Source: Aeromonas sp. (GTDB taxonomy: Bacteria > Pseudomonadota > Gammaproteobacteria > Enterobacterales > Aeromonadaceae). From it: a DNA stretch of 64,000 bases. This document shows, one piece after another, positions 21,545 to 60,428 of the stretch (its first letter is position 1; each line of letters begins with the position of its first letter). The notes beneath the pieces are model-generated. The model was not told the DNA's origin. It searched no databases and worked only from the letters and a program-made list of their open reading frames with translations. The DNA is taken from contig JBOFMA010000139.1 in NCBI GenBank assembly GCA_051658125.1, forward strand, positions 4,660 to 68,659, in the 5' to 3' direction. A program made the position numbers and the translations under genes.

Positions 21545-21629
21545 GCGAAGGTGGCGGAATTGGTAGACGCGCTAGCTTCAGGTGTTAGTGCCTTCGGGTG
21601 TGAGGGTTCGAGTCCCTCTCTTCGCACCA
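21545..21629 (+). tRNA. tRNA-Leu (CAG)
   Basis: GCGAAGG..CCA, anticodon loop TT-CAG-GT, long variable arm, TTCGAGT T-loop. Confidence 0.98.
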
Positions 21630-21682
21630 TACTGCTCTGCGGTGTTCCGCCACAGATAAATCAAAATTGGAAAATCTAATGT

Positions 21683-21767
21683 GCGAAGGTGGCGGAATTG
21701 GTAGACGCGCTAGCTTCAGGTGTTAGTGCCTTCGGGTGTGAGGGTTCGAGTCCCTCTCTTCGCACCA
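21683..21767 (+). tRNA. tRNA-Leu (CAG)
   Basis: Identical to the first copy. Confidence 0.98.
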
Positions 21768-21832
21768 TGAACTGACATGTAAAAACAGTGCCATGCCCCA
21801 TTGCATGTAAAAGATATGGGAACAATCAGTGT

Positions 21833-21918
21833 GCGAAGGTGGCGGAATTGGTAGACGCGCTAGCTTCAGGTGTTAGTGTCCCACGGATGTGAGGGTTCGA
21901 GTCCCTCTCTTCGCACCA
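21833..21918 (+). tRNA. tRNA-Leu (CAG)
   Basis: Same body as the other copies; variable arm differs (GTCCCACGGAT instead of GCCTTCGGGT). Confidence 0.98.
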
Positions 21919-24660: not shown

Positions 24661-25311
24661 TTAGCCTAAGCGTGCCAACAGCCAGTGGCGCATATCGGCT
24701 AGTTGCGCTTGGCACACTTCATGGCGCATGGGGTATTCATGCCACGCTGGCGCCAGTCCCAGCGTTTCTAGCAGGCTTTTGGCCTGCCAGCCCAAACTCA
24801 TCGCCACCACGTCATCATACACGCCATGCATGTAGCACACGGGCAGCTCACGAGCCGCTGGGCTTATCTCGTTGGCTAGCTGTTCGGGCGCGGCTAAATA
24901 GGTGGATAAGCAGAGTAAGCCGCCGAGCGGGCGCTCGGCGCGCAAGGCGCAAAAGCTGGCAATCACGCCGCCTTGGGAAAAGCCGGCCAGCACAATGCGC
25001 TCGCTGGCAAACCCTTCGCCCACCAGTTGATCAATTAACGCATTTATCTGCTGCGCACTGGCGCGCACATCGGCTTCCACCGCGCGCAGGCTCGGCGCGC
25101 TAAAGCTGATGATGTCGTACCACGCCCGCAGCTTTTGCCCGTCGCTGATGGTCACGGGCCGAAACGGGGCGCTCGGCAACAGATGCCGCACCGGCAGATC
25201 GCTCGGCAGTTGCAGCGCGTCAACCAGTGGCGCTAAGCCGCTGCCGCTATCGCCTAAGCCGTGCAGCCAGATAATGGCGTGGCGCGCGCCAGCGGGGTGT
25301 CGATCGATCAT
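24661..25311 (-). CDS. Phospholipase/carboxylesterase (alpha/beta hydrolase)
   Basis: WLHGLGDSG, RAWYDI, GFSQGG nucleophile elbow, MHGVYDDVV and MRHEV motifs; ATGA overlap with cyaY. Confidence 0.9.
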   Translation of the reverse strand: MIDRHPAGARHAIIWLHGLGDSGSGLAPLVDALQLPSDLPVRHLLPSAPFRPVTISDGQKLRAWYDIISFSAPSLRAVEADVRASAQQINALIDQLVGEGFASERIVLAGFSQGGVIASFCALRAERPLGGLLCLSTYLAAPEQLANEISPAARELPVCYMHGVYDDVVAMSLGWQAKSLLETLGLAPAWHEYPMRHEVCQAQLADMRHWLLARLG

Positions 25312-27109: not shown

Positions 27110-27145
27110 TGGCGCGGCCATCTTAACCAATACACAGTGGGCGCT

Positions 27146-27976
27146 ATGGTGATCGATTTTTCCAAGATGCATGGACTCGGCAACGACTTCATGGTGGTCG
27201 ATGGAGTAACGCAAAAAGTATTTTTTAGCAGTGATGTGATCAAAAAATTGGCCGACCGCCACTATGGCGTTGGCTTTGATCAGCTGCTGCTGGTTGAGCC
27301 GCCCTATGATCCGGAGCTCGATTTCCACTATCGCATTTTTAATGCCGACGGCACTGAAGTGGAGCAGTGCGGCAACGGCGCGCGCTGTTTTGCGCGCTTT
27401 GTGCGGGAAAAAGGGTTGATCAATCGCGATCGCATCGCGGTGGGCACGGCGCGCGGCCGGATCATGTTGCAATTAGAAAGCGGCGACCAAGTGACAGTGA
27501 ACATGGGCGCGCCACAATTTGAACCCAGCAAGATCCCCTTTCGCGCGCAAAAAGCGGAAAAAACCTATTTGCTGCGCGTGCAAGAGCACACGGTGATGTG
27601 CGGCGTGGTAGCGGTGGGTAACCCCCATTGTGTGGTGGAAGTGGCGGATGTTGTCGAGGCGCCGGTGGCCAGCTTGGGCGCGGCATTGGAGCGCTTTGAG
27701 CGCTTTCCCGACAAGGTCAATGTCGGCTTTATGCAAATTATTAGTGCCAGTGAAATTCGACTGCGCGTGTTTGAGCGCGGCTGCGGCGAGACCCTCGCCT
27801 GTGGTAGTGGCGCGTGCGCCGCGGTGGTGGTGGGCATTTTGCAGGGCAAGCTTAAAGAGCGTGTGCTGGTGCATCTGCCCGGCGGCGATTTGACCATCGC
27901 TTGGCGCGGCCCCGACCAACCGGTGTATATGACCGGGCCTACCGAACATATTTTTGATGGCCAAGTGGAGCTGTAA
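27146..27976 (+). CDS. dapF: Diaminopimelate epimerase
   Basis: [24 protein letters not shown] and [13 protein letters not shown] motifs. Confidence 0.98.
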
Positions 27977-27978
27977 GC

Positions 27979-29082
27979 GTGACGCCCACCCCAGCCATGC
28001 GGCCTACCGATGAACTGGTGGCGCAAAATGCCGCCTATTTAGCCCATTTGGCCGCCACCGGCTTAAGTGCTGGCCGCCAGCGCCAAGCGGTGCGTGATTT
28101 GCAGCAATTATCCACTGTGGCGGCGGCGCTGCAGCTGGCTTGCTGGCAAGCGCTCACGCCGCCTTTGGTGCCGGCTTTTTTGCACTATTGGCAGACGCAC
28201 GGGCTGGCAAGCAGCCGGCAGCAGGCGCTATTGGCTACGCTGCGCCGCTTGTGTGATTGGCAAATGCTCAGCGGGCAGCGGCCGGCCAATCCGCTGCGCG
28301 GGTTAGCGCCGATTAAGCATGTGCCAGAAAAATCCGCCGCTTTGGCCAGCAGCGCCGTGTCCCAATTACTGGAGCGGCGTGCGTCCTCTGGTGGGGTGGA
28401 TCTGCGCGGTGACCGCTTGCTGGCGCGCGATCGCGCCATGTTTGAGCTGATTTATGCCACGGGGCTGCGCGTGACCGAGCTTATCGCTTTGGATGTGGCC
28501 GACGTTAATTTAACCGAGCGCTGGCTGCAGATTGGCGGGCGCCGCGCGCGCGCGCTGCCGCTGGGGCGCTTGGCGCAAGAGAGCTTAAAGCAGTGGCTAA
28601 CCTGGCGCCAAGGCTGGGCGCCGGCGCATGAACCGGCGCTGTTTTTATCCCAGCAGCGTAAACGCATTTCAGCGTATGGCGTGCAGCTGCGCCTTGATGC
28701 ATGGGGCAAAAACCAAGCGATGGCAGTGGCGGTGACGCCCAGTGTGTTGCGCCGCAGCGCCGCTGAACATATGCGCGCCGCCGGTACCGACTTGGCGGCG
28801 CTACAGGCGCAGCTTGGGCTTGGCACCTTGGCCACCGCCGCCCAATATGGCGCGCCGGCGTGGGAACAAATCAATCAGTCCTATGCGTTGCACCCACGCG
28901 CCAAGCGCCGCGCTGCGGCGCCGCTGGATGTGGCGGCCATGCCCGCCGATAAACGGCAAAGCCCAGAGCCAGAAATAGCCGAAACGCTTGAGCCGGTCGC
29001 CGCCTTAGTCCCGCAGCCACTGGCCGCAGAGCCGGCGCCGGATCAGGCGGCCCCCGCGCAAGACCCAAGGCAGGCAGATTGA
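27979..29082 (+). CDS. xerC: XerC-like tyrosine recombinase, divergent and catalytically degenerate
   Basis: RDRAMFELIYATGLRVTEL box I, ALFLS..KRIS, C-terminal HPRAKR and dapF-xerC-yigB synteny. Box II reads PSVLRRS...LGL...QY instead of PHxLRHS...LGH...IY. Confidence 0.8.
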   Translation: MTPTPAMRPTDELVAQNAAYLAHLAATGLSAGRQRQAVRDLQQLSTVAAALQLACWQALTPPLVPAFLHYWQTHGLASSRQQALLATLRRLCDWQMLSGQRPANPLRGLAPIKHVPEKSAALASSAVSQLLERRASSGGVDLRGDRLLARDRAMFELIYATGLRVTELIALDVADVNLTERWLQIGGRRARALPLGRLAQESLKQWLTWRQGWAPAHEPALFLSQQRKRISAYGVQLRLDAWGKNQAMAVAVTPSVLRRSAAEHMRAAGTDLAALQAQLGLGTLATAAQYGAPAWEQINQSYALHPRAKRRAAAPLDVAAMPADKRQSPEPEIAETLEPVAALVPQPLAAEPAPDQAAPAQDPRQAD

Positions 29083-29807
29083 TGCAGTTTTATCGCCGCT
29101 GGCAGCCGGTGCAGGCGCTGAGTTTTGACCTAGACGACACTCTATATGACAACGGGCCGGTGATGGCGCGCGCTGAGCAGGCGTGGCTTACGGCCTTAAC
29201 ACAATGCCAGCCGCAGGCCGGCGCGTGGCATCGCGCCCGTTGGCAACAGGCCAAGCGCACGGCTTTGGAGCGTGATCCGCGGCTGCGCGGTGATGTCACC
29301 GCTTGGCGCTGGGCTGCGGCCTTTGGCGCGCTGCGTGCCGCCGGCGGTGATGAGCTTGCGGCGCGAGCGGCAACCGATCAGTTGCTGGCCGAATTTTTGG
29401 CCGTGCGCGCCCAAGTGCGCATTGCGCCCGAGGTGCATCAGTTATTAGCTGCGTTGCAGGCGCAGTACCCGCTTATCGTGATCACTAACGGTAATGTTGA
29501 TTTAGCCGCGATTGGCTTGGCCGGTTATTTTACGGCCGTGTTTAAAGCCTCGCTGGCATGGCCGATGAAGCCAGCACCAGCCATGTTTAGCGCCGCGGCG
29601 GCGGCGGTGAACTTGGCGCCCGCACAAATTCTGCATATTGGCGATCATCCGCTCACCGATGTCGCGGGCGCCAAAGCGGCCGGTTTTCGCGCCGCTTGGC
29701 TAAGTCCGCGCGCCGCGCCGCTGCCGGCGCTGCTGCCGGATGTGCGCATAACGCAGTTAGCTGAGTTGGCTGATGTTCTGCTGCCCGCGCGCAAAAACAG
29801 CCGGTAG
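29082..29807 (+). CDS. yigB: HAD-superfamily hydrolase (YigB-like FMN phosphatase)
   Basis: SFDLDDTLYDN, ITNGN, KP and HIGDHPLTDVAGA HAD motifs; TGATG overlap with xerC. Confidence 0.88.
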   Translation: MQFYRRWQPVQALSFDLDDTLYDNGPVMARAEQAWLTALTQCQPQAGAWHRARWQQAKRTALERDPRLRGDVTAWRWAAAFGALRAAGGDELAARAATDQLLAEFLAVRAQVRIAPEVHQLLAALQAQYPLIVITNGNVDLAAIGLAGYFTAVFKASLAWPMKPAPAMFSAAAAAVNLAPAQILHIGDHPLTDVAGAKAAGFRAAWLSPRAAPLPALLPDVRITQLAELADVLLPARKNSR

Positions 29808-34991: not shown

Positions 34992-35079
34992 TGGCGGAGG
35001 AGGTGGGATTTGAACCCACGGATGGTCGCCCATCGCCGGTTTTCAAGACCGGTGCATTCAGCCGCTCTGCCACCCCTCC
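34992..35079 (-). tRNA. tRNA-Ser (TGA)
   Basis: Reverse complement GGAGGGG..GCCA, anticodon arm CCGGT-CTTGAAA-ACCGG, long variable arm; 88 nt. Confidence 0.97.
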
Positions 35080-35391: not shown

Positions 35392-36417
35392 ATGTCTGAC
35401 TCTTCCCCATTGCGCTTTCCCAAAGGTTGGTTTGCGTTAGCTTCTGTCTATAGCTTTACCGCATTAGCCATTTTGGCTTCAATGATATTTTCGCTGCTGC
35501 TGTTTTTGTCCATCGACAATGATCCGCTAATGCGTTTGCTGTTTGGCGGTTTGGCCATTTTGTTTGAATTTGGCAAATTTTACGTCTGGTACGAGTATGG
35601 CGAGCGCAAAGCGCATGGCAACTTAAGCGGTGCCTTATGGTCGTTGGCCTTCTATATCATTTTGGCGACGATCTCTATCGGCGGCAGTATTGGTGGCATT
35701 AATAGCGCGACTAACAGCGTGCTTAACGCACAGGCGCAATATGAGCGTAAAATCGCGCGTTTTGATCAGCAAATTTTGAGTATTGAGCGGCAAATTAAGC
35801 TCAATGAAGAGGCGGCGCGCAAATATATTGAATTAGAGCGTATTGCCCGTGGCGTGTCGGCAATTCAAGAAGCCAACGCCAAACTGCAGCAGCAACAAGA
35901 TGAGTTGCGCCTGCAGCGCGATGCCACGCCACTCAGCGAGCAATCCTCAGTGCTGGGTTTAATGAGCAGTTTGGCCGATGGCCTAGCGCTGAGCATTGCG
36001 CAGGTGCAATTTATGTTAGTGTGCTTCTTATCTGTGCTACTTGATGCTTTTGGCGCCTTTTTTGTCAGTTTGATCGGTGAAGAGCATCGCTTTCGCCAGC
36101 AATGGCGGCAGCAGCAAGCCGCGTTGGCGGCGGCGGCGCGGCAAGCCGCGCCAGAGGAAGAGCCTTTGCCCTTGCTGGCGATGTCACAAGTTGATCTGCA
36201 GTTAGCGCACAAGGTGCAAACAGCATTAGAGGCGGGCGAGGTTGCCTGTAGCAAACGTAAAGTGGCGCAATATTTTGGCTTAACGCTCGAAGAGGTGGAT
36301 AGCGTGTTTAAATATTTGCTGACGCAAGGTGTGCTGGAGCAGGGCAATAATCGCCACTATTACCTGCAAGCAGAGGTTATGCCGACAAGCGATCTTGGCG
36401 GCGCGCTGGCCTCTTAG
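35392..36417 (+). CDS. Uncharacterised membrane protein: N-terminal TM helices, coiled coil, further TM, C-terminal winged-HTH-like domain
   Basis: Hydrophobic segments at about aa 12-102 and 190-228, heptad-rich region at about aa 105-180, C-terminal SKRKVAQYFGLTLEEVDSVFKYLLTQGVLEQGNNRHYYL. Confidence 0.8.
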   Translation: MSDSSPLRFPKGWFALASVYSFTALAILASMIFSLLLFLSIDNDPLMRLLFGGLAILFEFGKFYVWYEYGERKAHGNLSGALWSLAFYIILATISIGGSIGGINSATNSVLNAQAQYERKIARFDQQILSIERQIKLNEEAARKYIELERIARGVSAIQEANAKLQQQQDELRLQRDATPLSEQSSVLGLMSSLADGLALSIAQVQFMLVCFLSVLLDAFGAFFVSLIGEEHRFRQQWRQQQAALAAAARQAAPEEEPLPLLAMSQVDLQLAHKVQTALEAGEVACSKRKVAQYFGLTLEEVDSVFKYLLTQGVLEQGNNRHYYLQAEVMPTSDLGGALAS

Positions 36418-36520: not shown

Positions 36521-36608
36521 TGGCGGAGGAGGTGGGATTTGAACCCACGGATGGTCGCCCATCGCCGGTTTTCAAGACCGGTGCATTCAGCCGCTCTGCC
36601 ACCCCTCC
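36521..36608 (-). tRNA. tRNA-Ser (TGA)
   Basis: Identical to 34992-35079. Confidence 0.97.
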
Positions 36609-51829: not shown

Positions 51830-51922
51830 GGAGAGGTGGCCGAGAGGCTGAAGGCGCTCCCCTGCTAAGGGAGTATGCGGCTTATACCCGCATCGGGGGT
51901 TCGAATCCCCCCTTCTCCGCCA
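51830..51922 (+). tRNA. tRNA-Ser (GCT)
   Basis: GGAGAGG..GCCA, anticodon arm CTCCC-CTGCTAA-GGGAG, long variable arm. Confidence 0.98.
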
Positions 51923-51931
51923 TTTTCTTGG

Positions 51932-52008
51932 GCGCCCGTAGCTCAGCTGGATAGAGTACCTGGCTACGAACCAGGTGGTCAGAGGTTCGAATCCTCTCGG
52001 GCGCACCA
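51932..52008 (+). tRNA. tRNA-Arg (ACG)
   Basis: GCGCCCG..ACCA, anticodon arm CCTGG-CTACGAA-CCAGG. Confidence 0.98.
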
Positions 52009-52034
52009 TCAAGATGGCATACAACAATTTATGA

Positions 52035-52111
52035 GCGCCCGTAGCTCAGCTGGATAGAGTACCTGGCTACGAACCAGGTGGTCAGAGGTTCGAATCCTCT
52101 CGGGCGCACCA
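52035..52111 (+). tRNA. tRNA-Arg (ACG)
   Basis: Identical copy. Confidence 0.98.
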
Positions 52112-52165
52112 TATTTCAACTTTGTTGCTTATCGTTGATAGCGCGACAGGGTAACAATTTATTGA

Positions 52166-52242
52166 GCGCCCGTAGCTCAGCTGGATAGAGTACCTGGCTA
52201 CGAACCAGGTGGTCAGAGGTTCGAATCCTCTCGGGCGCACCA
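52166..52242 (+). tRNA. tRNA-Arg (ACG)
   Basis: Identical copy. Confidence 0.98.
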
Positions 52243-52552: not shown

Positions 52553-53464
52553 ATGAGCATTGACCTATCCCGTTTAATCACAGAAACGCGTAACCCAGCC
52601 AGTGTCGAAATTGACCAGCTCAGCACGCTGGAAATGTTGCGCATCATTAACCAAGAAGACCAACACGTTGCCGTTGCGGTGCAGGCGTTACTACCACAGA
52701 TTGCGCTCGCGGTGGATAAAATTGCCGATGCCTTTCGTTGTGGTGGACGCTTGGTATATATCGGTGCAGGAACCTCTGGGCGTTTGGGTATTTTAGATGC
52801 CAGTGAGTGCCCGCCGACTTACGGGGTGCCCGCATCACAAGTCGTCGGTTTAATTGCCGGTGGTCATAAAGCTATTTTGCAAGCGGTAGAAAACGCGGAA
52901 GATGATGCTGAACTCGGGGCGCAAGATTTGCACGCGCTGCAATTTAATGCCCGCGACGTATTAGTTGGTATTGCGGCCAGTGGCCGCACACCTTATGTGC
53001 TCGGCGCGATGGCTTACGCAAAAAGCCTTGGCGCTACGGTGTGCAGCATTAGTTGCAATCCAGGTAGCCCACTGGCACAAGCGGCAGATATCAGTATGGT
53101 CGCCGTCGTCGGGCCAGAAATTGTTACCGGTTCGTCACGCATGAAAGCGGGAACAGCGCAAAAACTCATTTTAAATATGCTCTCCACTGGCGCCATGATC
53201 CGCACAGGTAAGGTGTACGGCAACTTGATGGTCGATGTCGAAGCGACTAACGCTAAATTGATCGAAAGACAAAAGCGTATCGTGATGGAAGCCACCGAGT
53301 GCACGCGTGCGACTGCTGAAGCGGCGCTGGCCGCTGCAGATAACCACTGTAAAACCGCCATTGTGATGATCTTGTCGGCGCTAAGCGCTCTAGAGGCGCG
53401 CGCCTTATTGGCTAAGCGAGGCGGTTTTATTAGCCAATGTACCGCTGTGGGCACGGCTAAATAA
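52553..53464 (+). CDS. murQ: N-acetylmuramic acid 6-phosphate etherase
   Basis: [54 protein letters not shown] and NLMVDV motifs. Confidence 0.97.
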
Positions 53465-53519
53465 ATAACGACATGGGCGAATCATCGCCCCCTTTCAAAG
53501 TGATGTGATTGGGTGCTGT

Positions 53520-54965
53520 ATGGCGAAAATAACGGATTTAATGATTGGGCAGATTATTACTGCCATCGGTGGGCAGCAGAATATTTTGCACTGCGGCCAT
53601 TGCATGACGCGTTTGCGCTTGAGTTTGGCCGATAGCTTGCACGCTGATCGCGACACCATCAAGCGTATTGCCGGTGTGTTGGGTGTGATTGAAAGTGATG
53701 ACCAGTTTCAAATTGTGCTTGGCCCTGGCAAAGCGCAAACTGCCTGTGAAATGCTCTCCGCCAGCTTGGACAGTGGTGATACTGCAAGCATCCCACACGA
53801 TAATCAGCGTTTAAAAGATGTCGCGAGCGCAAATAAGCAAGCCTTAAAAAGCAAGCAAACCAGTGTTGCGCATCGCTTCTTAGCTAAATTTGCCACTATT
53901 TTCACGCCGCTGATCCCCGGTTTTATCGCTGCGGGGTTGCTGCTTGGGATATCGACATTACTTGAACAAACTTTATTGCCCGCACATGGTGCGGAGAGTG
54001 CATTAGCCGCCATGATTGGCTATATGAAACTGTTCAGTAAGGGTTTGTTTAGTTTTCTGAGTATTCTAATTGGTTTTAATGCCCAAAAAGCCTTTGGTGG
54101 CTCCGGTGTTAATGGCGCGATTTTGGCCTCACTGTTTGTCATGGGCTATAACCCCGACGCTACTAGCGGCATATATTCTGGAATTAATGATTTTTTTGGT
54201 CAAACCATTGATCCGCGAGGCAATATTATCGGGGTGTTGATTGCTTGTATTATTGGCGCGAATGTTGAACGTCAAGTTCGTAAATTTGTGCCAGATAGTT
54301 TAGATATGATACTCACCTCTTGTATCACTTTGCTGATTATGGGGGCGGTTACATTTATCTTGATCATGCCCGTCGGCGTGCAGTTATATAATGCCATGTC
54401 ATGGCTGTTTATTAATTTGAACGGTAATCCGTTTGGCACAGCGATTCTGGCTGGACTATTTTTAATCTCGGTAATGTTTGGTATTCATCAAGGTTTTGTG
54501 CCGGTCTATTTTGCGCTAATGGATGCACAGGGTTTTAATTCACTGTTTCCTATCTTGGCGATGGCCGGCGCCGGCCAAGTCGGTGCGGCGTTAGCATTGT
54601 ATAGCCGTGCTGCGAAAGACTCGTTATTACGTAGTCAGGTTAAAGGCACAATTATTCCCGGTATCCTTGGTGTTGGCGAACCGTTGATTTACGGCGTTAC
54701 GTTACCGCGCGTTAAACCATTTATCACGGCTTGTATTGGTGGTGCTTTGGGGGGCTTTGTGGTTGGTCTGATCGCTTGGTTAGGCTTGCCGGTCGGTTTA
54801 AATACCGTATTTGGCCCCTCAGGTATTGTCGCCTTGCCATTAATGACCTCAGCACAAGGTATTTTCCCCGGCATGTTAGTTTATACCGCAGGCCTCGCGG
54901 TGGCTTATCTTGCCGGCTATATTGTGACGCTACTCTTTGGCTGTAAAGATGTTGATTTAAGCTAA
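53520..54965 (+). CDS. murP: PTS N-acetylmuramic acid transporter EIIBC
   Basis: [12 protein letters not shown] cysteine motif, FGIHQG and [13 protein letters not shown] motifs; follows murQ. Confidence 0.9.
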
Positions 54966-55074
54966 TTTTTAAATAAATGGCGCAGTTGTATTTAGTATGG
55001 TTTTATATTTAATCTAGATTGAGATTAAGCATGACTTGCGCCATATATAACTATTCACCCAATATGAGATTGAT

Positions 55075-56949
55075 ATGAAAAACATCGCTATTTTTGCAAT
55101 GAGCCTCGTGAGCGCTTCTGTATATGCGGCACCGGTTAGTAACGACGTATTGAAAACTTGGTGGCATTCACCGGCAACCTCAGCGGTACAAATTGTTAAC
55201 AATATGTCATTGCGCGAACAAATTGGTCAAACCTTAATGCTTGATTTTCGCGCATGGGGTAAAAATGAAAAAGATGAGCCGCTAGCTCTCACCAAATTGA
55301 ATAAAGAGATCGCCGAGATAATTTATAACTATCGGCTTGGCTCGGTGATATTATTTCGTGAAAACTTGCTCAATACCACGCAGACAGTTGATTTAATTAA
55401 TGCTTTACAAGCTGCACGCAGCAATTTGCCACTGTTTGTGAGTGTTGACCAAGAGGGCGGTTATGTCACGCGCTTGCAAGAAGGCACTGAAATGCCGGGT
55501 AATATGGCCTTAGGGGCCACACGCAATCCAGCTTTAGCGGAATTATCGGGTATGGTACATGGCGCTGAGCTTGCTAGCTTGGGCTTTAATTTTAATTTCG
55601 GTCCAGTAGTTGATGTAAATAGTAATCAAAATAACCCAGTGATAGGTGTGCGTTCTTATTCTGACCGGCCTGAATTGGTCACCACAATGGCTAATAGCTA
55701 TGTAAAAGGCATCCATAAATATAATATTTTAACTTCAGCCAAGCATTTCCCTGGGCACGGTAACGTAGCCGTGGATTCGCATTTTGGTTTGCCATCGGTG
55801 CCTTACTCGGTGCAAGAGTGGCGCCGGATTGATTTACCGCCTTTTGCGCAAGCACTTAAATACGGTGCGGATTCCGTCATGACCGCGCATGTTTCTGTAC
55901 CTCAGTTAGATAACTCACAGTTGACGACGTTAAAAGGCGAAAAGATGACTACGCCAGCGACGTTATCAAAAAAAATCATCGATGGGGTGCTGCGTCAGCA
56001 GCTTAAATTTGATGGTTTGGTATTAACCGATGCGATGGATATGGGTGCAATTTCAAGCAATTTTGACATGAACTGGGCGGTAGAGACGGCATTAAAAGCA
56101 GGCGTAGATATTGCTTTAATGCCGATCCCGATATGGGATGCGGCGGCGGTTGGAAAATTAGATAAGCTGTATACCCATCTCATAAGCCAAGCAGATAAAG
56201 ATGAAGATTTGCGTGAGCGTATTAAGCAATCCGCGCAGCGTGTAGTGTTGGCTAAGTTAACTCACCGCATTGATGGCATGGCAAAAGATAGCGCAGTAGC
56301 TAAAACCATCGTCGCTTCTTTACAGCATAAAAAGCTCGAAGATATGGTATCGGAAAATGCGATAACTTTGATTAAGAATGATGCGGTATTGCCGTTTGTA
56401 TTAAAAGAAAATAGCAATATATTGGTTATTTCCGATGAGCAATCACGTAATGACCTGATAATTAAGCACATTAATGGCTTGGTGAATGAGACCGCGTTGA
56501 GCGCGATTAACCTGGACAGTGCTAAAGTCGCATTAATGGGCAACGATTTGTCTACAGACACCTTACAGGCAAAAATAGCGCAAAGTGATTTGATTGTGTT
56601 AGCGACATATAACTTAGGTAAAGACCCACTTAACGCGCAAAAGATTATTGATGCGGCAAATATGGCGCAGAAAAAATTAGTGGTGATTGCGACGCGCAAT
56701 CCTTATGATATTGCGCACTTGCGTAATGTTAACGCTAATTTGGCCATCTATGGTGTTACGGGATTTGACATCACAAATAACAATAGAAATAGCTTGGAAG
56801 CCAATATTAAGGCTGGCGTGAAAACACTATTTGCAGACCCGGTAACGCAGCAGCCATTTAATCGTCCGCTAGGGAAGTTACCTGTCAATATTAAATCAGC
56901 TGATGGTAGTAAAGTGTTGTATGCCATTGATCACGGTTTGACATTTTAA
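55075..56949 (+). CDS. nagZ: Secreted two-domain GH3 beta-N-acetylglucosaminidase (NagZ, Bacillus type)
   Basis: Sec signal MKNIAIFAMSLVSASVYA, VDQEGG.V.RL, RSYS, KHFPGHG..VDSH (His/Asp dyad), MTAH and LTDAMDM (nucleophile); C-terminal domain with TRNPYD. Confidence 0.88.
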   Translation: MKNIAIFAMSLVSASVYAAPVSNDVLKTWWHSPATSAVQIVNNMSLREQIGQTLMLDFRAWGKNEKDEPLALTKLNKEIAEIIYNYRLGSVILFRENLLNTTQTVDLINALQAARSNLPLFVSVDQEGGYVTRLQEGTEMPGNMALGATRNPALAELSGMVHGAELASLGFNFNFGPVVDVNSNQNNPVIGVRSYSDRPELVTTMANSYVKGIHKYNILTSAKHFPGHGNVAVDSHFGLPSVPYSVQEWRRIDLPPFAQALKYGADSVMTAHVSVPQLDNSQLTTLKGEKMTTPATLSKKIIDGVLRQQLKFDGLVLTDAMDMGAISSNFDMNWAVETALKAGVDIALMPIPIWDAAAVGKLDKLYTHLISQADKDEDLRERIKQSAQRVVLAKLTHRIDGMAKDSAVAKTIVASLQHKKLEDMVSENAITLIKNDAVLPFVLKENSNILVISDEQSRNDLIIKHINGLVNETALSAINLDSAKVALMGNDLSTDTLQAKIAQSDLIVLATYNLGKDPLNAQKIIDAANMAQKKLVVIATRNPYDIAHLRNVNANLAIYGVTGFDITNNNRNSLEANIKAGVKTLFADPVTQQPFNRPLGKLPVNIKSADGSKVLYAIDHGLTF

Positions 56950-57043
56950 GTTGCTTTAATCTAAAGCAAATACATTGGTCGCCAAGTTGTGGCTTGGTGG
57001 CTAATAAAATAGCTGACCAAATAAAATTAATCATGCAAAGGAA

Positions 57044-58171
57044 ATGAATATGCTTTGTTCATCTTTTACCCTGCCTACACAGGTAGCTTTTCGAGTATCG
57101 TTGCTAGCTAGCTTATTGGCCGCAGGTTATGCTCAGGCGGAAGAAAATAACGTACTTGCACCGACTGACCAAGGCAGTGATGTGCAACAGTTAGAGCAAG
57201 AGCTTTCTTCGGTAAAGCAAGAGCTTACGGCGCTAAAAAACAAGCCAAAATGGAATGTTGAGGCTTATCTTGGTACAGAGCAAGAAATTAACAGCGATGA
57301 TGATTGGAAATTTCAAAACGGTTCTTTGGCGACATCGCCTTATCTGGGCGCGTTCATTTATCAAGATGGATCGCCATGGATGTATGACGTTCAGTTTTTA
57401 AAAACATATATTGATCACAATAGTGAATACAACCGTAATCGCTTTAGTCTTGGCGTCACTCGAACGATGCCATTTAATATTGAAGGTAAATCTGGCAGCG
57501 TGAAAATGCGCGTGGGTTATCGTAATGATAGCTATCACTGGGGCTCGATTAATAAGGCGTCACTGGCCGCGCCAGATTATAAAGGTGACCTACGTAAAGG
57601 CGAAGAGCGCAATGAAATTTGGCTGCGTCCAGCGCTATCTTATAATTACAGCGCCAACCTAAATTTGATGGCAGCATTTTCATTCCGGATCATCGACCGG
57701 GAGTTAGATTATGCGCGTGCGCAAGGTGAGTATGGCGTGACTACGCGTGACTGGAGTACGATTGATGAGCATCTGCTCGGCGGCACCTATAAATTTAATG
57801 CCAGTAGCTCGTTATCGGCTTATTATTTGTATGTTAGAGAAAAATTAGTGCGCACCATGGATAATGAGGAGCATTTTGCTTGGGTTACCTATCGCCACAA
57901 GATCCCGAGTGGACAAACTATCGCTCCGTATGTGCGTTATGCATTAGCCGATAGTAAAACCTATTATTTTAATTCAGACAAAGATGAAATTAATTTAAAG
58001 CGCATGGATCGCACTCGGTTTGGATTGCAGTTAACGCAGCCAATTTCTCCGGCGACTTCGTTGATGTTTGATATTTATTATCGCCCAGAAACGGTTAAAG
58101 ACCGCAATGCGGCTACGACGACGGATAATAATTTCATCTTGTGGTACATGGAATTAAAGCATAAGTTTTAA
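57044..58171 (+). CDS. Outer-membrane beta-barrel porin (OmpG/KdgM-like) with an N-terminal coiled coil
   Basis: Signal peptide ending AGYAQA, alternating amphipathic strands rich in Y/R, terminal Phe (MELKHKF). Confidence 0.75.
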   Translation: MNMLCSSFTLPTQVAFRVSLLASLLAAGYAQAEENNVLAPTDQGSDVQQLEQELSSVKQELTALKNKPKWNVEAYLGTEQEINSDDDWKFQNGSLATSPYLGAFIYQDGSPWMYDVQFLKTYIDHNSEYNRNRFSLGVTRTMPFNIEGKSGSVKMRVGYRNDSYHWGSINKASLAAPDYKGDLRKGEERNEIWLRPALSYNYSANLNLMAAFSFRIIDRELDYARAQGEYGVTTRDWSTIDEHLLGGTYKFNASSSLSAYYLYVREKLVRTMDNEEHFAWVTYRHKIPSGQTIAPYVRYALADSKTYYFNSDKDEINLKRMDRTRFGLQLTQPISPATSLMFDIYYRPETVKDRNAATTTDNNFILWYMELKHKF

Positions 58172-58230
58172 TGTTTAATTAGTGTGCGGCGCTATGTGTG
58201 TCATACGCGCCGAGCAAGGAGTAATGAAAA

Positions 58231-59046
58231 GTGAAAAAAATCTTGTGGTCGATATTATTTGCCTGTTCGGCAAACGCCTACGCTGATTTGCCGGCGCTAT
58301 CGAGTGCGCAATTAAATGATATTGGTGAGCGTATTTATAAAAATGAGGCGGCAGGCAAGCGCGAAAATCTAATATTTTGGGGTGAGCATGAGGCCTTTCC
58401 TTCACTCGGAATTGCCCATTTTATTTGGTATCCGGCTGGGCAAACGGGGCCTTTTGAGGAGATGTTTCCTGCCCTAGTCGAGCGCTATAAGCAAAAAGGC
58501 ATGGCATTACCGAAATTATTGCAAACCCATGCCCATGCGCCTTGGCCAGATCGTGCGGCTTTTTTAGCGGCAAAGAACAGCCCTGAGGTTTTGGAGTTGC
58601 TGGCATTTTTAGATAGCACTCGTGCCGTGCAGGCTGAGGCGGTGTACGCCCGTTTAGAGGGCGTGTTAGGACGCTTAATTGCGGCTAGTGCTAAACCAGA
58701 GCAGGTAAAAACGCAGTTTAATCGAGTGGTACAAGATAAAAATGGTGCTTATGCCTTGATTGATTACATCAATTTTAAAGGCGAGGGGGTTAAGGCCAGT
58801 GAGCGCTTTAATGGTAAAGGTTGGGGCTTATTGCAAGTGCTAGAAAATATGCATGGCACCGCGCAAGATGCTACGGTCATGCGTGAATTTGCCGGTAGTG
58901 TGATCGTGGTATTGGCACAGCGCTCGTTAAATGCCGCGCAAGACTCCCGTTTTCAGGCCGATCCTCACGCCAAGCAGCGCGTCGAAACCGGCTATATGCC
59001 GGGCTTTTCCCGCCGCGCTCTGACGTATATGGGCATTGGCTTGTGA
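58231..59046 (+). CDS. Uncharacterised secreted protein, putative lysozyme/chitosanase-like fold
   Basis: Signal peptide MKKILWSILFACSANAYA; IYKNE(39)..W.EHE..SLGIAHFIWYP, LIDYINFKGEG and GWGLLQVL motifs. Confidence 0.7.
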   Translation: MKKILWSILFACSANAYADLPALSSAQLNDIGERIYKNEAAGKRENLIFWGEHEAFPSLGIAHFIWYPAGQTGPFEEMFPALVERYKQKGMALPKLLQTHAHAPWPDRAAFLAAKNSPEVLELLAFLDSTRAVQAEAVYARLEGVLGRLIAASAKPEQVKTQFNRVVQDKNGAYALIDYINFKGEGVKASERFNGKGWGLLQVLENMHGTAQDATVMREFAGSVIVVLAQRSLNAAQDSRFQADPHAKQRVETGYMPGFSRRALTYMGIGL

Positions 59047-60428
59047 GGCGCGCTCGCGCAGTAACGCTGGCCAGTGCTTGGCTAGCGGCGCTAAGTTGTG
59101 CTCCGGCATTGGCACAAACGCTCAATGCACCGCTAGCCGCGGCGCCGATACAGCTGGGTGTGGATCGTAGTGATGTTTATGGCCCATTGCTGAAAGGTAA
59201 ACGGGTGGGCTTGATGGTGAATCAAAGCTCGCGCGATAGCCATGGCGTACATACCATCGATAAATTGCTCAGTGAGCAACAACGCTATGGCTTTACCGTG
59301 ACCAAGCTGTTTTCTGTCGAGCATGGTTTACGTGGCAAAGCCGAAGCGGGTTATGGTGACAAGGCGAATTATCGCGACCCTAAATCGGGTTTACCGGTAG
59401 TGAGCCTGTATGGTAACGATGCTAATGGTCAATCGCGCGCACAGCCGCGTCCTGAGCAGTTAGATGATGTCGATGTCATCGTATTTGACTTACAAGATGT
59501 GGGTGTGCGCTTTTTTACTTACACCATCTCGATGCATCGGATGCTGGAGAGCGCGCAGGCGGCGGGTAAGGCGTTTATGGTTTTTGATCGCCCCAACCCC
59601 AATGGTGGGCAGGTGTATGGCCCGCTTCTTACGGAGGGCTTTGTCTCTGGCATTGGTATTCATCCGTTGCCGATGGTGCACGATCTAACCACTGCTGAGT
59701 TTGCTGCCATGATCAATGGCGAGTTATGGCTAAATGGCCTTCAGCATGCAGACAATCAGTGGCAGCAGTTTGGGCAGGTGCAATACCAATTGCCGGCAGC
59801 GGATTTGCAGTTGATCCCAATGCAAGGTTATCAGCGTGGACAACGTTATGTCTTGCCGGTACCTCCGTCACCCAATTTAGCTAATGAACTTGCTGTGCGT
59901 TTGTATCCATCGCTGGGCTTATTTGAAGCCACCAGCGTGAACATGGGGCGTGGTTCGGACTATCCGCATCAGCAAGTGGGTTTTCCTGATCCGAAGATGC
60001 AAGTTAACGTGCGTTATTCGGTGGACGCCAAACAAACGGACTATGGCTGGCCACAAGGTGGCAAGACGGTCTATGGGCAGAGTTATCGGCCGGAATTAGG
60101 CGGTGCGGCACCGGCTACGTTGCAAGCGTCGATTACGCCGTTTGTGACGTGGTGGTTTAAGTTAACGCAAGCCGGTTACCAAGGTGCGCTGGATGCTGCG
60201 CGTGAGCCTGACTATTTGCAGTACGCACAAACGCACTATGTGATCCGGCCACAATGGTTAGGCAAGGTGGTGGGCGATGATTCGCTGCTTCAGGCGTTGA
60301 CGCAAGTTGATGTCACACAAGCAACGGTGGCGCACACCGTTGCGGCCATCGAACAAAGTTGGCAGCCGGCGCTGCAGAAATATTTGCAACAACGGCAACC
60401 CTATCTGCTCTATCCACCGGCGAAATAG
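59043..60428 (+). CDS. namZ: Exo-beta-N-acetylmuramidase NamZ family (DUF1343, GH171)
   Basis: Signal peptide, VGLMVNQSS, FSVEHGLRG, SLYG, FDLQDVGVRFFTY, DRPNP, H.LT.AE, PSPNL and EAT..N.GRG motifs; GTGA overlap with the upstream gene. Confidence 0.88.
   Translation: MRRARAVTLASAWLAALSCAPALAQTLNAPLAAAPIQLGVDRSDVYGPLLKGKRVGLMVNQSSRDSHGVHTIDKLLSEQQRYGFTVTKLFSVEHGLRGKAEAGYGDKANYRDPKSGLPVVSLYGNDANGQSRAQPRPEQLDDVDVIVFDLQDVGVRFFTYTISMHRMLESAQAAGKAFMVFDRPNPNGGQVYGPLLTEGFVSGIGIHPLPMVHDLTTAEFAAMINGELWLNGLQHADNQWQQFGQVQYQLPAADLQLIPMQGYQRGQRYVLPVPPSPNLANELAVRLYPSLGLFEATSVNMGRGSDYPHQQVGFPDPKMQVNVRYSVDAKQTDYGWPQGGKTVYGQSYRPELGGAAPATLQASITPFVTWWFKLTQAGYQGALDAAREPDYLQYAQTHYVIRPQWLGKVVGDDSLLQALTQVDVTQATVAHTVAAIEQSWQPALQKYLQQRQPYLLYPPAK

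Follow-up and report, generated by a model that had tools for sequence, protein, structure and literature searches.

The open reading frame (ORF) at the xerC position of the window (the whole 64-kb stretch of DNA that was analysed) encodes a degenerate tyrosine recombinase of 367 aa (27979–29082, plus strand; GTG start, TGA stop at 29080–29082). XerC normally resolves chromosome dimers together with XerD at dif. In this protein only three of the six residues of the catalytic set R-K-H-R-H/W-Y were kept (R164, R258 and Y290), and the reading that we prefer is that of an XerC-derived pseudo-recombinase, catalytically crippled or dead, that was kept for a non-catalytic role, possibly helped by operon constraints. 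We give this reading a probability of about one half. The degenerate XerC was retained in place and yigA was lost alongside; the case comes from a single genome and is put forward as a lead rather than a result.

An operon that lacks yigA, in a lineage next to Aeromonas

The gene set of the window comprises cyaA, a carboxylesterase gene, cyaY, lysA, dapF, the xerC-like ORF and a yigB-like HAD hydrolase gene. A PLD-type gene in the same window is probably pssA, and a further ORF was taken, from its translation, to be recG. As in relatives, the xerC-like ORF is flanked by dapF and yigB, but the yigA gene that separates dapF from xerC is absent. The upstream gene of the operon, dapF (27137–27976, plus strand; diaminopimelate epimerase, 83% identical to Aeromonas DapF), ends with a TAA at 27974–27976, and only 2 nt (27977–27978, plus strand) stand between this stop codon and the GTG of the xerC-like ORF. 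A GGAG (27968–27971, plus strand), read from the sequence as a putative Shine-Dalgarno-like motif, lies 8 nt 5′ of the GTG. At the other end, the TGA overlaps at 29082 with the ATG of the yigB-like gene (29082–29807, plus strand; about 50% identical to the Aeromonas homolog), which gives TGATG. The tight coupling on both sides that the initial annotation had claimed could thus be read directly in the sequence. Its second claim for the locus, that yigA is missing, was borne out by comparison. DUF484/yigA sits between dapF and xerC in all 80 gammaproteobacterial loci that were fetched via dapF and takes up about 700 nt in all relatives at the site of the 2-nt junction, whereas tblastn gave no match to a yigA remnant in the window below E = 0.3. 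The Pfam DUF484 model scored 150 bits against the Aeromonas copy of yigA. A literature search for a link between DUF484/yigA and XerC, or for tyrosine-recombinase pseudoenzymes, gave nothing useful. By tblastn, there was no second recombinase gene in the 64-kb window.

The proteins of the window were most similar to those of Aeromonas (82–84% identity for DapF, 73% for LysA and 68% for CyaA), with lower identities to Tolumonas, Zobellella, Pseudaeromonas and Oceanisphaera. Among 5.8 billion protein clusters, no DapF came closer than 83% identity. A phospholipase/carboxylesterase gene between cyaA and cyaY (24661–25311, minus strand) was common to Aeromonas loci only and absent from the Tolumonas, Zobellella, Pseudaeromonas, Oceanisphaera and enteric loci, which supports a sister relationship to Aeromonas. 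By these sequence comparisons, the source is a lone long-branch lineage next to Aeromonas, and its branches are generally somewhat long, at 1.3–1.9 times the Aeromonas branch. Homologs of the xerC-like protein with more than 40% identity were found neither by a word-indexed nor by an exhaustive search of libraries from about 15 billion proteins, and plasmid and phage records contained no close homolog.

A XerD of the same lineage was sought with the XerD of Aeromonas caviae as the query, after E. coli xerD had been used to locate the gene in the A. caviae chromosome. The profile sought was that of an orphan nearest to Aeromonas, as the window's own DapF shows. No such orphan was present among the best 120 matches (69–100% identity) in the 5.8-billion-protein collection, a weak negative result in a long-branch lineage whose DapF shows no greater similarity to that of A. 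caviae than the Tolumonas DapF does, and whose assembly may be incomplete. The result is compatible, weakly, with a XerD that was lost or became equally degenerate. The PLSDB record NZ_AP026896.1 (our locus L082), a 4.94-Mb A. caviae 'plasmid pKAM479_3', carries the chromosomal xerC and xerD and is evidently a chromosome filed among the plasmids; several other Mb-sized PLSDB 'plasmids' look likewise.

Elsewhere in the window, a low-GC block at 52553–60428 (GC 0.42–0.51 compared to about 0.57 elsewhere, GC3 0.42–0.54, CAI 0.57–0.63) holds genes for a MurQ-like SIS protein, a PTS EIIBC and a GH3 glycosidase. The block is probably an island for amino-sugar/MurNAc utilisation that was acquired horizontally. 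An array of four tRNA genes (51830–52239) lies directly upstream of this block. Upstream of cyaA, three tRNA genes stand in tandem (21545–21915), and their Rfam scores are equal or nearly so. On the minus strand, two further tRNA genes of equal score (34995–35079 and 36524–36608) flank an ORF at 35392–36417.

Substitutions in the active site and across the whole protein

The catalytic residues were mapped by alignment with E. coli XerD, Escherichia XerC and the XerC proteins of 15, then 80, of the loci fetched via dapF. The alignment showed that the E. coli XerC numbering given in the initial annotation was correct, and so were the residues that it had listed as kept and as lost. R164 (28468–28470, plus strand) is Arg I and corresponds to R148 in E. 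coli XerC, R258 corresponds to R243, and Y290 (28846–28848, plus strand) occupies the position of the nucleophile, Y275; E167, the counterpart of E151 in Escherichia XerC, is also kept. The β2–β3 hairpin reads GGRRAR (residues 186–191; 28534–28551, plus strand), which lacks the general-acid Lys and any other Lys and is 2 aa shorter than the canonical GKGxKER; in the alignment with Escherichia XerC, GKGSKER became GGR--RAR. The counterpart of K172 is most likely R188, which is a conservative replacement of the Lys; with another placement of the gap it would be G187. A (CG) run of about 6.5 units (28543–28555) coincides with the hairpin, where every ortholog has two residues more, and slippage at this run could have produced the 6-nt deletion. 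Downstream, H-x-L-R-H has been replaced by S255-V-L-R258-R259 (28741–28755, plus strand), in which His II is lost (S255 for H240), Arg II is kept and the next His has become an Arg (R259 for H244), and L281 (28819–28821, plus strand) replaces His III (H266 in E. coli).

The positions of K172, H240, H244 and H266 were occupied by K/H/H/H in 80 of 80 gammaproteobacterial XerC orthologs, compared to R/S/R/L here. Among the 193 nearest Xer-like proteins from two global searches, His II was a His in 191 and His III in 192, and only five deviated at any position of the R-H-R-H-Y pentad. These five (P0208, P0065, P0057, P0147 and P0198, of which P0208 reads R-H-Q-P-Y and P0065 reads R-A-R-H-gap) indicate that degenerate Xer-like proteins exist elsewhere at a low frequency. 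The Pfam Phage_integrase model (PF00589) recognised residues 148–291 with 87.4 bits against a cut-off of 27.1. The best NCBIfam match was the XerC equivalog TIGR02224, but with 149.1 bits it stayed far below the cut-off of 335.15; the XerD model scored 128 bits against a cut-off of 330.

The substitutions were not confined to the active site. The protein was 32–40% identical to XerC orthologs from Aeromonadaceae, Vibrio, Aliagarivorans and Enterobacteriaceae, which are themselves 50–91% identical to each other. Identity was slightly higher to XerC of Aeromonadaceae (34–40%) than to XerC of Enterobacteriaceae (32–33%), and Aeromonadaceae-type stretches, for example EPALFLSQQRKRIS and VQLRLDAWG, were present. 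In a neighbour-joining tree, the protein fell on the XerC side of the XerC/XerD split, on a long branch outside all gammaproteobacterial XerCs. When columns that were invariant in 15 orthologs were counted, 48 of 93 had been kept (52%), and a random placement of substitutions would keep 0.50–0.54 of them. At the Cre-type active-site positions, 4 of 7 were kept, which is no better than this background; the retained Tyr and Arg thus give no evidence of selection on catalysis. Between motif II and the C-terminus (residues 254–312), conservation was 94% among orthologs and 41% here.

The N-terminal core-binding-type domain (residues 1–125; 27979–28353, plus strand), whose high divergence the initial annotation had noticed, was the most eroded part: agreement with the Aeromonadaceae consensus was 27%, compared to 75% for orthologs, and 9 of 25 invariant positions remained, although four helices were predicted with pLDDT above 90. 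Replacements also affected the DNA-binding motif of the N-terminal domain, the linker LPKNLDVD and the segment that follows the Tyr, a segment that contacts the partner subunit in tyrosine recombinases. According to the alignment, 7 aa have been inserted in frame into the inter-domain linker (residues 134–140; 28378–28398, plus strand; pLDDT below 50 at 136–138), ahead of the catalytic-type domain (residues 148–312; 28420–28914, plus strand). Within residues 11–312, invariant polar residues were often replaced by Ala (E26A, Y37A, N121A, D123A, F261A, E267A, S268A, R273A, E277A, T287A, Q288A, H292A and D294A). Alanine made up 18.2% of the core, compared to 8–11% in orthologs and 7–10% in GC-biased neutral simulations, and the core held 6 Lys residues compared to 8–19 in orthologs.

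The erosion was specific to this gene. In a three-taxon comparison, the branch length was 0.78 for the xerC-like protein and 0.13–0.41 for the products of cyaA, cyaY, lysA, dapF and yigB. Expressed as a ratio to the Aeromonas branch, this was 4.3 compared to 1.3–1.9 for the five flanking genes. The protein has evolved about 3–4 times faster than those of the flanking genes, whose own evolution was normal.

The protein also carries the Pro/Ala-rich tail of 55 aa (residues 313–367; 28915–29079, plus strand) that the initial annotation had described; the tail is acidic, absent from orthologs and predicted to be disordered. It contains 11 P, 15 A and 10 D/E compared to 3 K/R, and no tandem repeat was found in it. 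In relatives, the spacer between xerC and yigB measures anything between about 30 and 470 nt, so the tail may be a read-through into the former spacer.

An open frame and a hydrophobic pattern kept beyond neutral expectation

The xerC-like gene is not a plain pseudogene. Its ORF contains no stop or frameshift, and all indels in the alignment were in frame, despite an estimated 300 or so substitutions; the two other frames contained 12–13 stops. GC1/2/3 (0.71/0.53/0.70) and CAI (0.69, with the 64-kb window as the reference) were within the range of neighbouring genes. Neutral drift was simulated with point mutations, ignoring indels, from three Aeromonadaceae xerC genes up to the observed excess divergence, and the frame remained free of stops in 0–0.5% of the runs (P about 0.001–0.005 for a stop-free frame); an ORF that is open by chance was rejected on these grounds. 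The hydrophobic class was kept at 61 of 72 positions (0.85) compared to 0.67–0.75 in the stop-free neutral simulations, of which 0–3% reached the observed retention. In contrast, the basic, acidic, small and amide classes were retained no better than in those simulations. The intact gene of the initial annotation was thus substantiated by the reading frame, the codon usage and the hydrophobic pattern.

A terminator-like hairpin of 8 pairs, 7 of which are G-C, was noticed inside the ORF at 28617–28650, with GTTTTTAT behind it. The site is no more than a match to the consensus, its T-run stems from the conserved ALFLS codons, and terminator-like sites numbered 20 in the region compared to 9.6 expected.

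The AlphaFold2 (AF2) model predicted a two-domain fold with a mean pLDDT of 83, a confidence that is partly inherited from the alignment of canonical Xer proteins. Blocks of 10 residues between residues 11 and 290 averaged at least 83, with the exception of 111–120 (72) and 131–140 (62). Foldseek matched the model to XerA, XerH, lambda Int and Cre with a probability of 1.00. The core had a net charge of +16 and a pI of 10.9, and was more basic than any ortholog. In this one genome of the lineage, a predicted fold and an open frame are thus kept beyond neutral expectation while catalytic residues have been lost.

The same data bear on whether the gene is a functionless relic on its way to being lost, with a frame that stays open only for the expression of yigB (Rho polarity and the TGATG coupling) and for the cost of misfolding. 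Under this explanation, the random rate at which invariant positions were replaced is expected, as is a retention of polar classes that does not exceed that of neutral simulations in which only stops are forbidden. The yigA gene has already been deleted, the remaining gene is tightly coupled on both sides, the tail is disordered and the core is rich in Ala (18% compared to 8–11% in orthologs). However, a clean deletion of the kind that took yigA would do away with the cost, and still 1.1 kb have been kept. The hydrophobic retention exceeds that of the stop-free neutral model, about 300 substitutions have left no frameshift, and the net positive charge has risen instead of decaying. We consider a relic unlikely.

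Readings of the retained XerC and their consequences

The sequence is best read as that of a positional xerC ortholog, vertically inherited in a long-branch lineage closest to Aeromonas, whose product most likely folds and may bind DNA but would do so without efficient recombination. Compared to the XerC of Aeromonas, Enterobacteriaceae and E. coli, the locus (dapF upstream and yigB downstream) and the two-domain fold are the same, Arg I, the Glu, Arg II and the Tyr are shared, and XerC is the best family match. In contrast, half of the invariant positions are gone, other residues stand in place of the hairpin Lys, of His II and His III and of the His that follows Arg II, a 55-aa acidic tail has appeared and yigA is missing from the locus. 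The interpretation in the initial annotation accordingly stood in part: a positional xerC ortholog with a degenerate catalytic set, encoded by an intact gene apparently under selection, was upheld, but the loss was not confined to the active site. The three scenarios that it had proposed, namely a structural partner for XerD-only catalysis, a DNA-binding regulator and a chromosome without XerCD/dif, all stand as candidates. That invariant positions were replaced across the protein speaks against a XerC whose role at an unaltered dif is the usual one except for a loss of catalysis; a protein that was remodelled or repurposed, or else a relic, fits better.

In the pseudo-recombinase reading, XerC-specific selection would have collapsed in the lineage, and the gene would have been retained as an expressed, folded and strongly basic protein after efficient strand cleavage and exchange at dif had been lost. 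Its retention could be due to a non-catalytic role in DNA or Holliday-junction binding, as an architectural partner or as a regulator, and may have been aided by the need for translation through the dapF-xerC-yigB operon. Chromosome dimers would presumably be resolved in some other way, either by XerD-only exchange followed by junction processing or by another recombinase. Several points weigh against the pseudo-recombinase reading. R164, E167, R258 and Y290 were kept, so some residual chemistry is possible; the polar and charged classes were kept no better than under neutral drift, which would also fit a functionless relic; the confidence of the AF2 model derives in part from canonical Xer proteins; and the lineage is represented by a single genome, with no relative above 40% identity for this protein and 83% identity for the nearest DapF.

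A non-catalytic role has a precedent in Pseudomonas aeruginosa, where XerC has a second, recombinase-independent function in pyocin control and where an xerC deletion and a Y272F mutant differ in phenotype (PMC9431673). XerC can thus matter apart from catalysis, but the P. aeruginosa protein is fully canonical, and no link to pyocins or to a regulator was visible here. Lineages in which a single recombinase (XerS, XerH or XerL) replaced both XerC and XerD show that proteobacteria can abandon the canonical pair, and in the cases described from Legionellales there is no detectable XerC or XerD homolog (PMC9765430). Such an abandonment is a possible background for relaxation in the present lineage. 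Unlike in Legionellales, a degenerate copy persists in place here, and the window holds no replacement recombinase.

Engineered recombinases provide a close comparison for the active site. In a saturation mutagenesis of Cre, only the Tyr and the hairpin Lys proved indispensable for activity above 5% of the wild type; K201R reduced cleavage about 100-fold, with no measurable recombination in vitro and weak activity in vivo, W315L was weakly active and His289 tolerated most substitutions (PMC2943603). The same positions are altered in the window protein as in these mutants and in the XerC Y-to-F mutant, and by analogy cleavage would be expected to be strongly reduced or absent and DNA binding to be retained (PMC2943603, PMC9431673). 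The window protein differs in being a natural combination of changes at several sites, with the Tyr kept and the remodelling spread over the whole protein.

The mutagenesis also lends some substance to a XerC that still works with an unorthodox active site, in which Arg188 stands in for the Lys, the two lost His residues are dispensable or compensated, and the surface that binds DNA has co-evolved with altered versions of the dif arm and of XerD. The R, E, R and Y residues are kept; Cre accepts all residues but D, E, K, R and W at His289, and W315L and, in vivo, K201R retain weak activity (PMC2943603). An intact ORF, undisturbed codon usage, an intact predicted fold and a strongly basic core point in the same direction. 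However, the three changes come here on top of a hairpin that is shorter by 2 aa and of the H244R replacement beside Arg II, and the active site (4 of 7 positions kept) fares no better than the 52% background. The segment after the Tyr and the motifs of the N-terminal domain are also replaced, the score is less than half of the XerC equivalog cut-off, and such residues were seen in none of the 80 XerC orthologs and in hardly any of the 193 closest homologs. We find a working XerC of this kind quite improbable.

It is very improbable that a foreign, divergent tyrosine recombinase replaced yigA-xerC in situ, as the clean junction after dapF, the absent yigA, a GC content somewhat above that of the neighbours and the tree position outside all gammaproteobacterial XerCs might suggest; this candidate was set aside, because no donor-like protein above 40% identity was found in the libraries from about 15 billion proteins or in plasmid or phage records, XerC is the best NCBIfam match, the identity is highest to Aeromonadaceae XerC with its family-specific stretches, the codon usage matches the host and long-branch attraction would produce the same tree position.

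The pseudo-recombinase reading can be extended to a more specific proposal, which we regard as doubtful in its entirety. The protein would be a naturally evolved non-catalytic XerC with a structural or regulatory role in DNA binding, its acidic tail might be autoinhibitory or bind a partner, and its free-living, Aeromonas-like host would resolve dimers with XerD only or by an unrecognised system. If the non-catalytic reading is true, the lineage would be a natural experiment on what XerC does apart from cutting DNA, and would show how a cell manages when canonical XerC catalysis is missing. The deletion of yigA alongside, a gene that is otherwise always adjacent to xerC, is a cheap and testable hint on the uncharacterised DUF484 family. 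Under the non-catalytic reading, the loss of yigA would mark YigA as tied to XerC catalysis and would provide a first functional handle on the DUF484 family.
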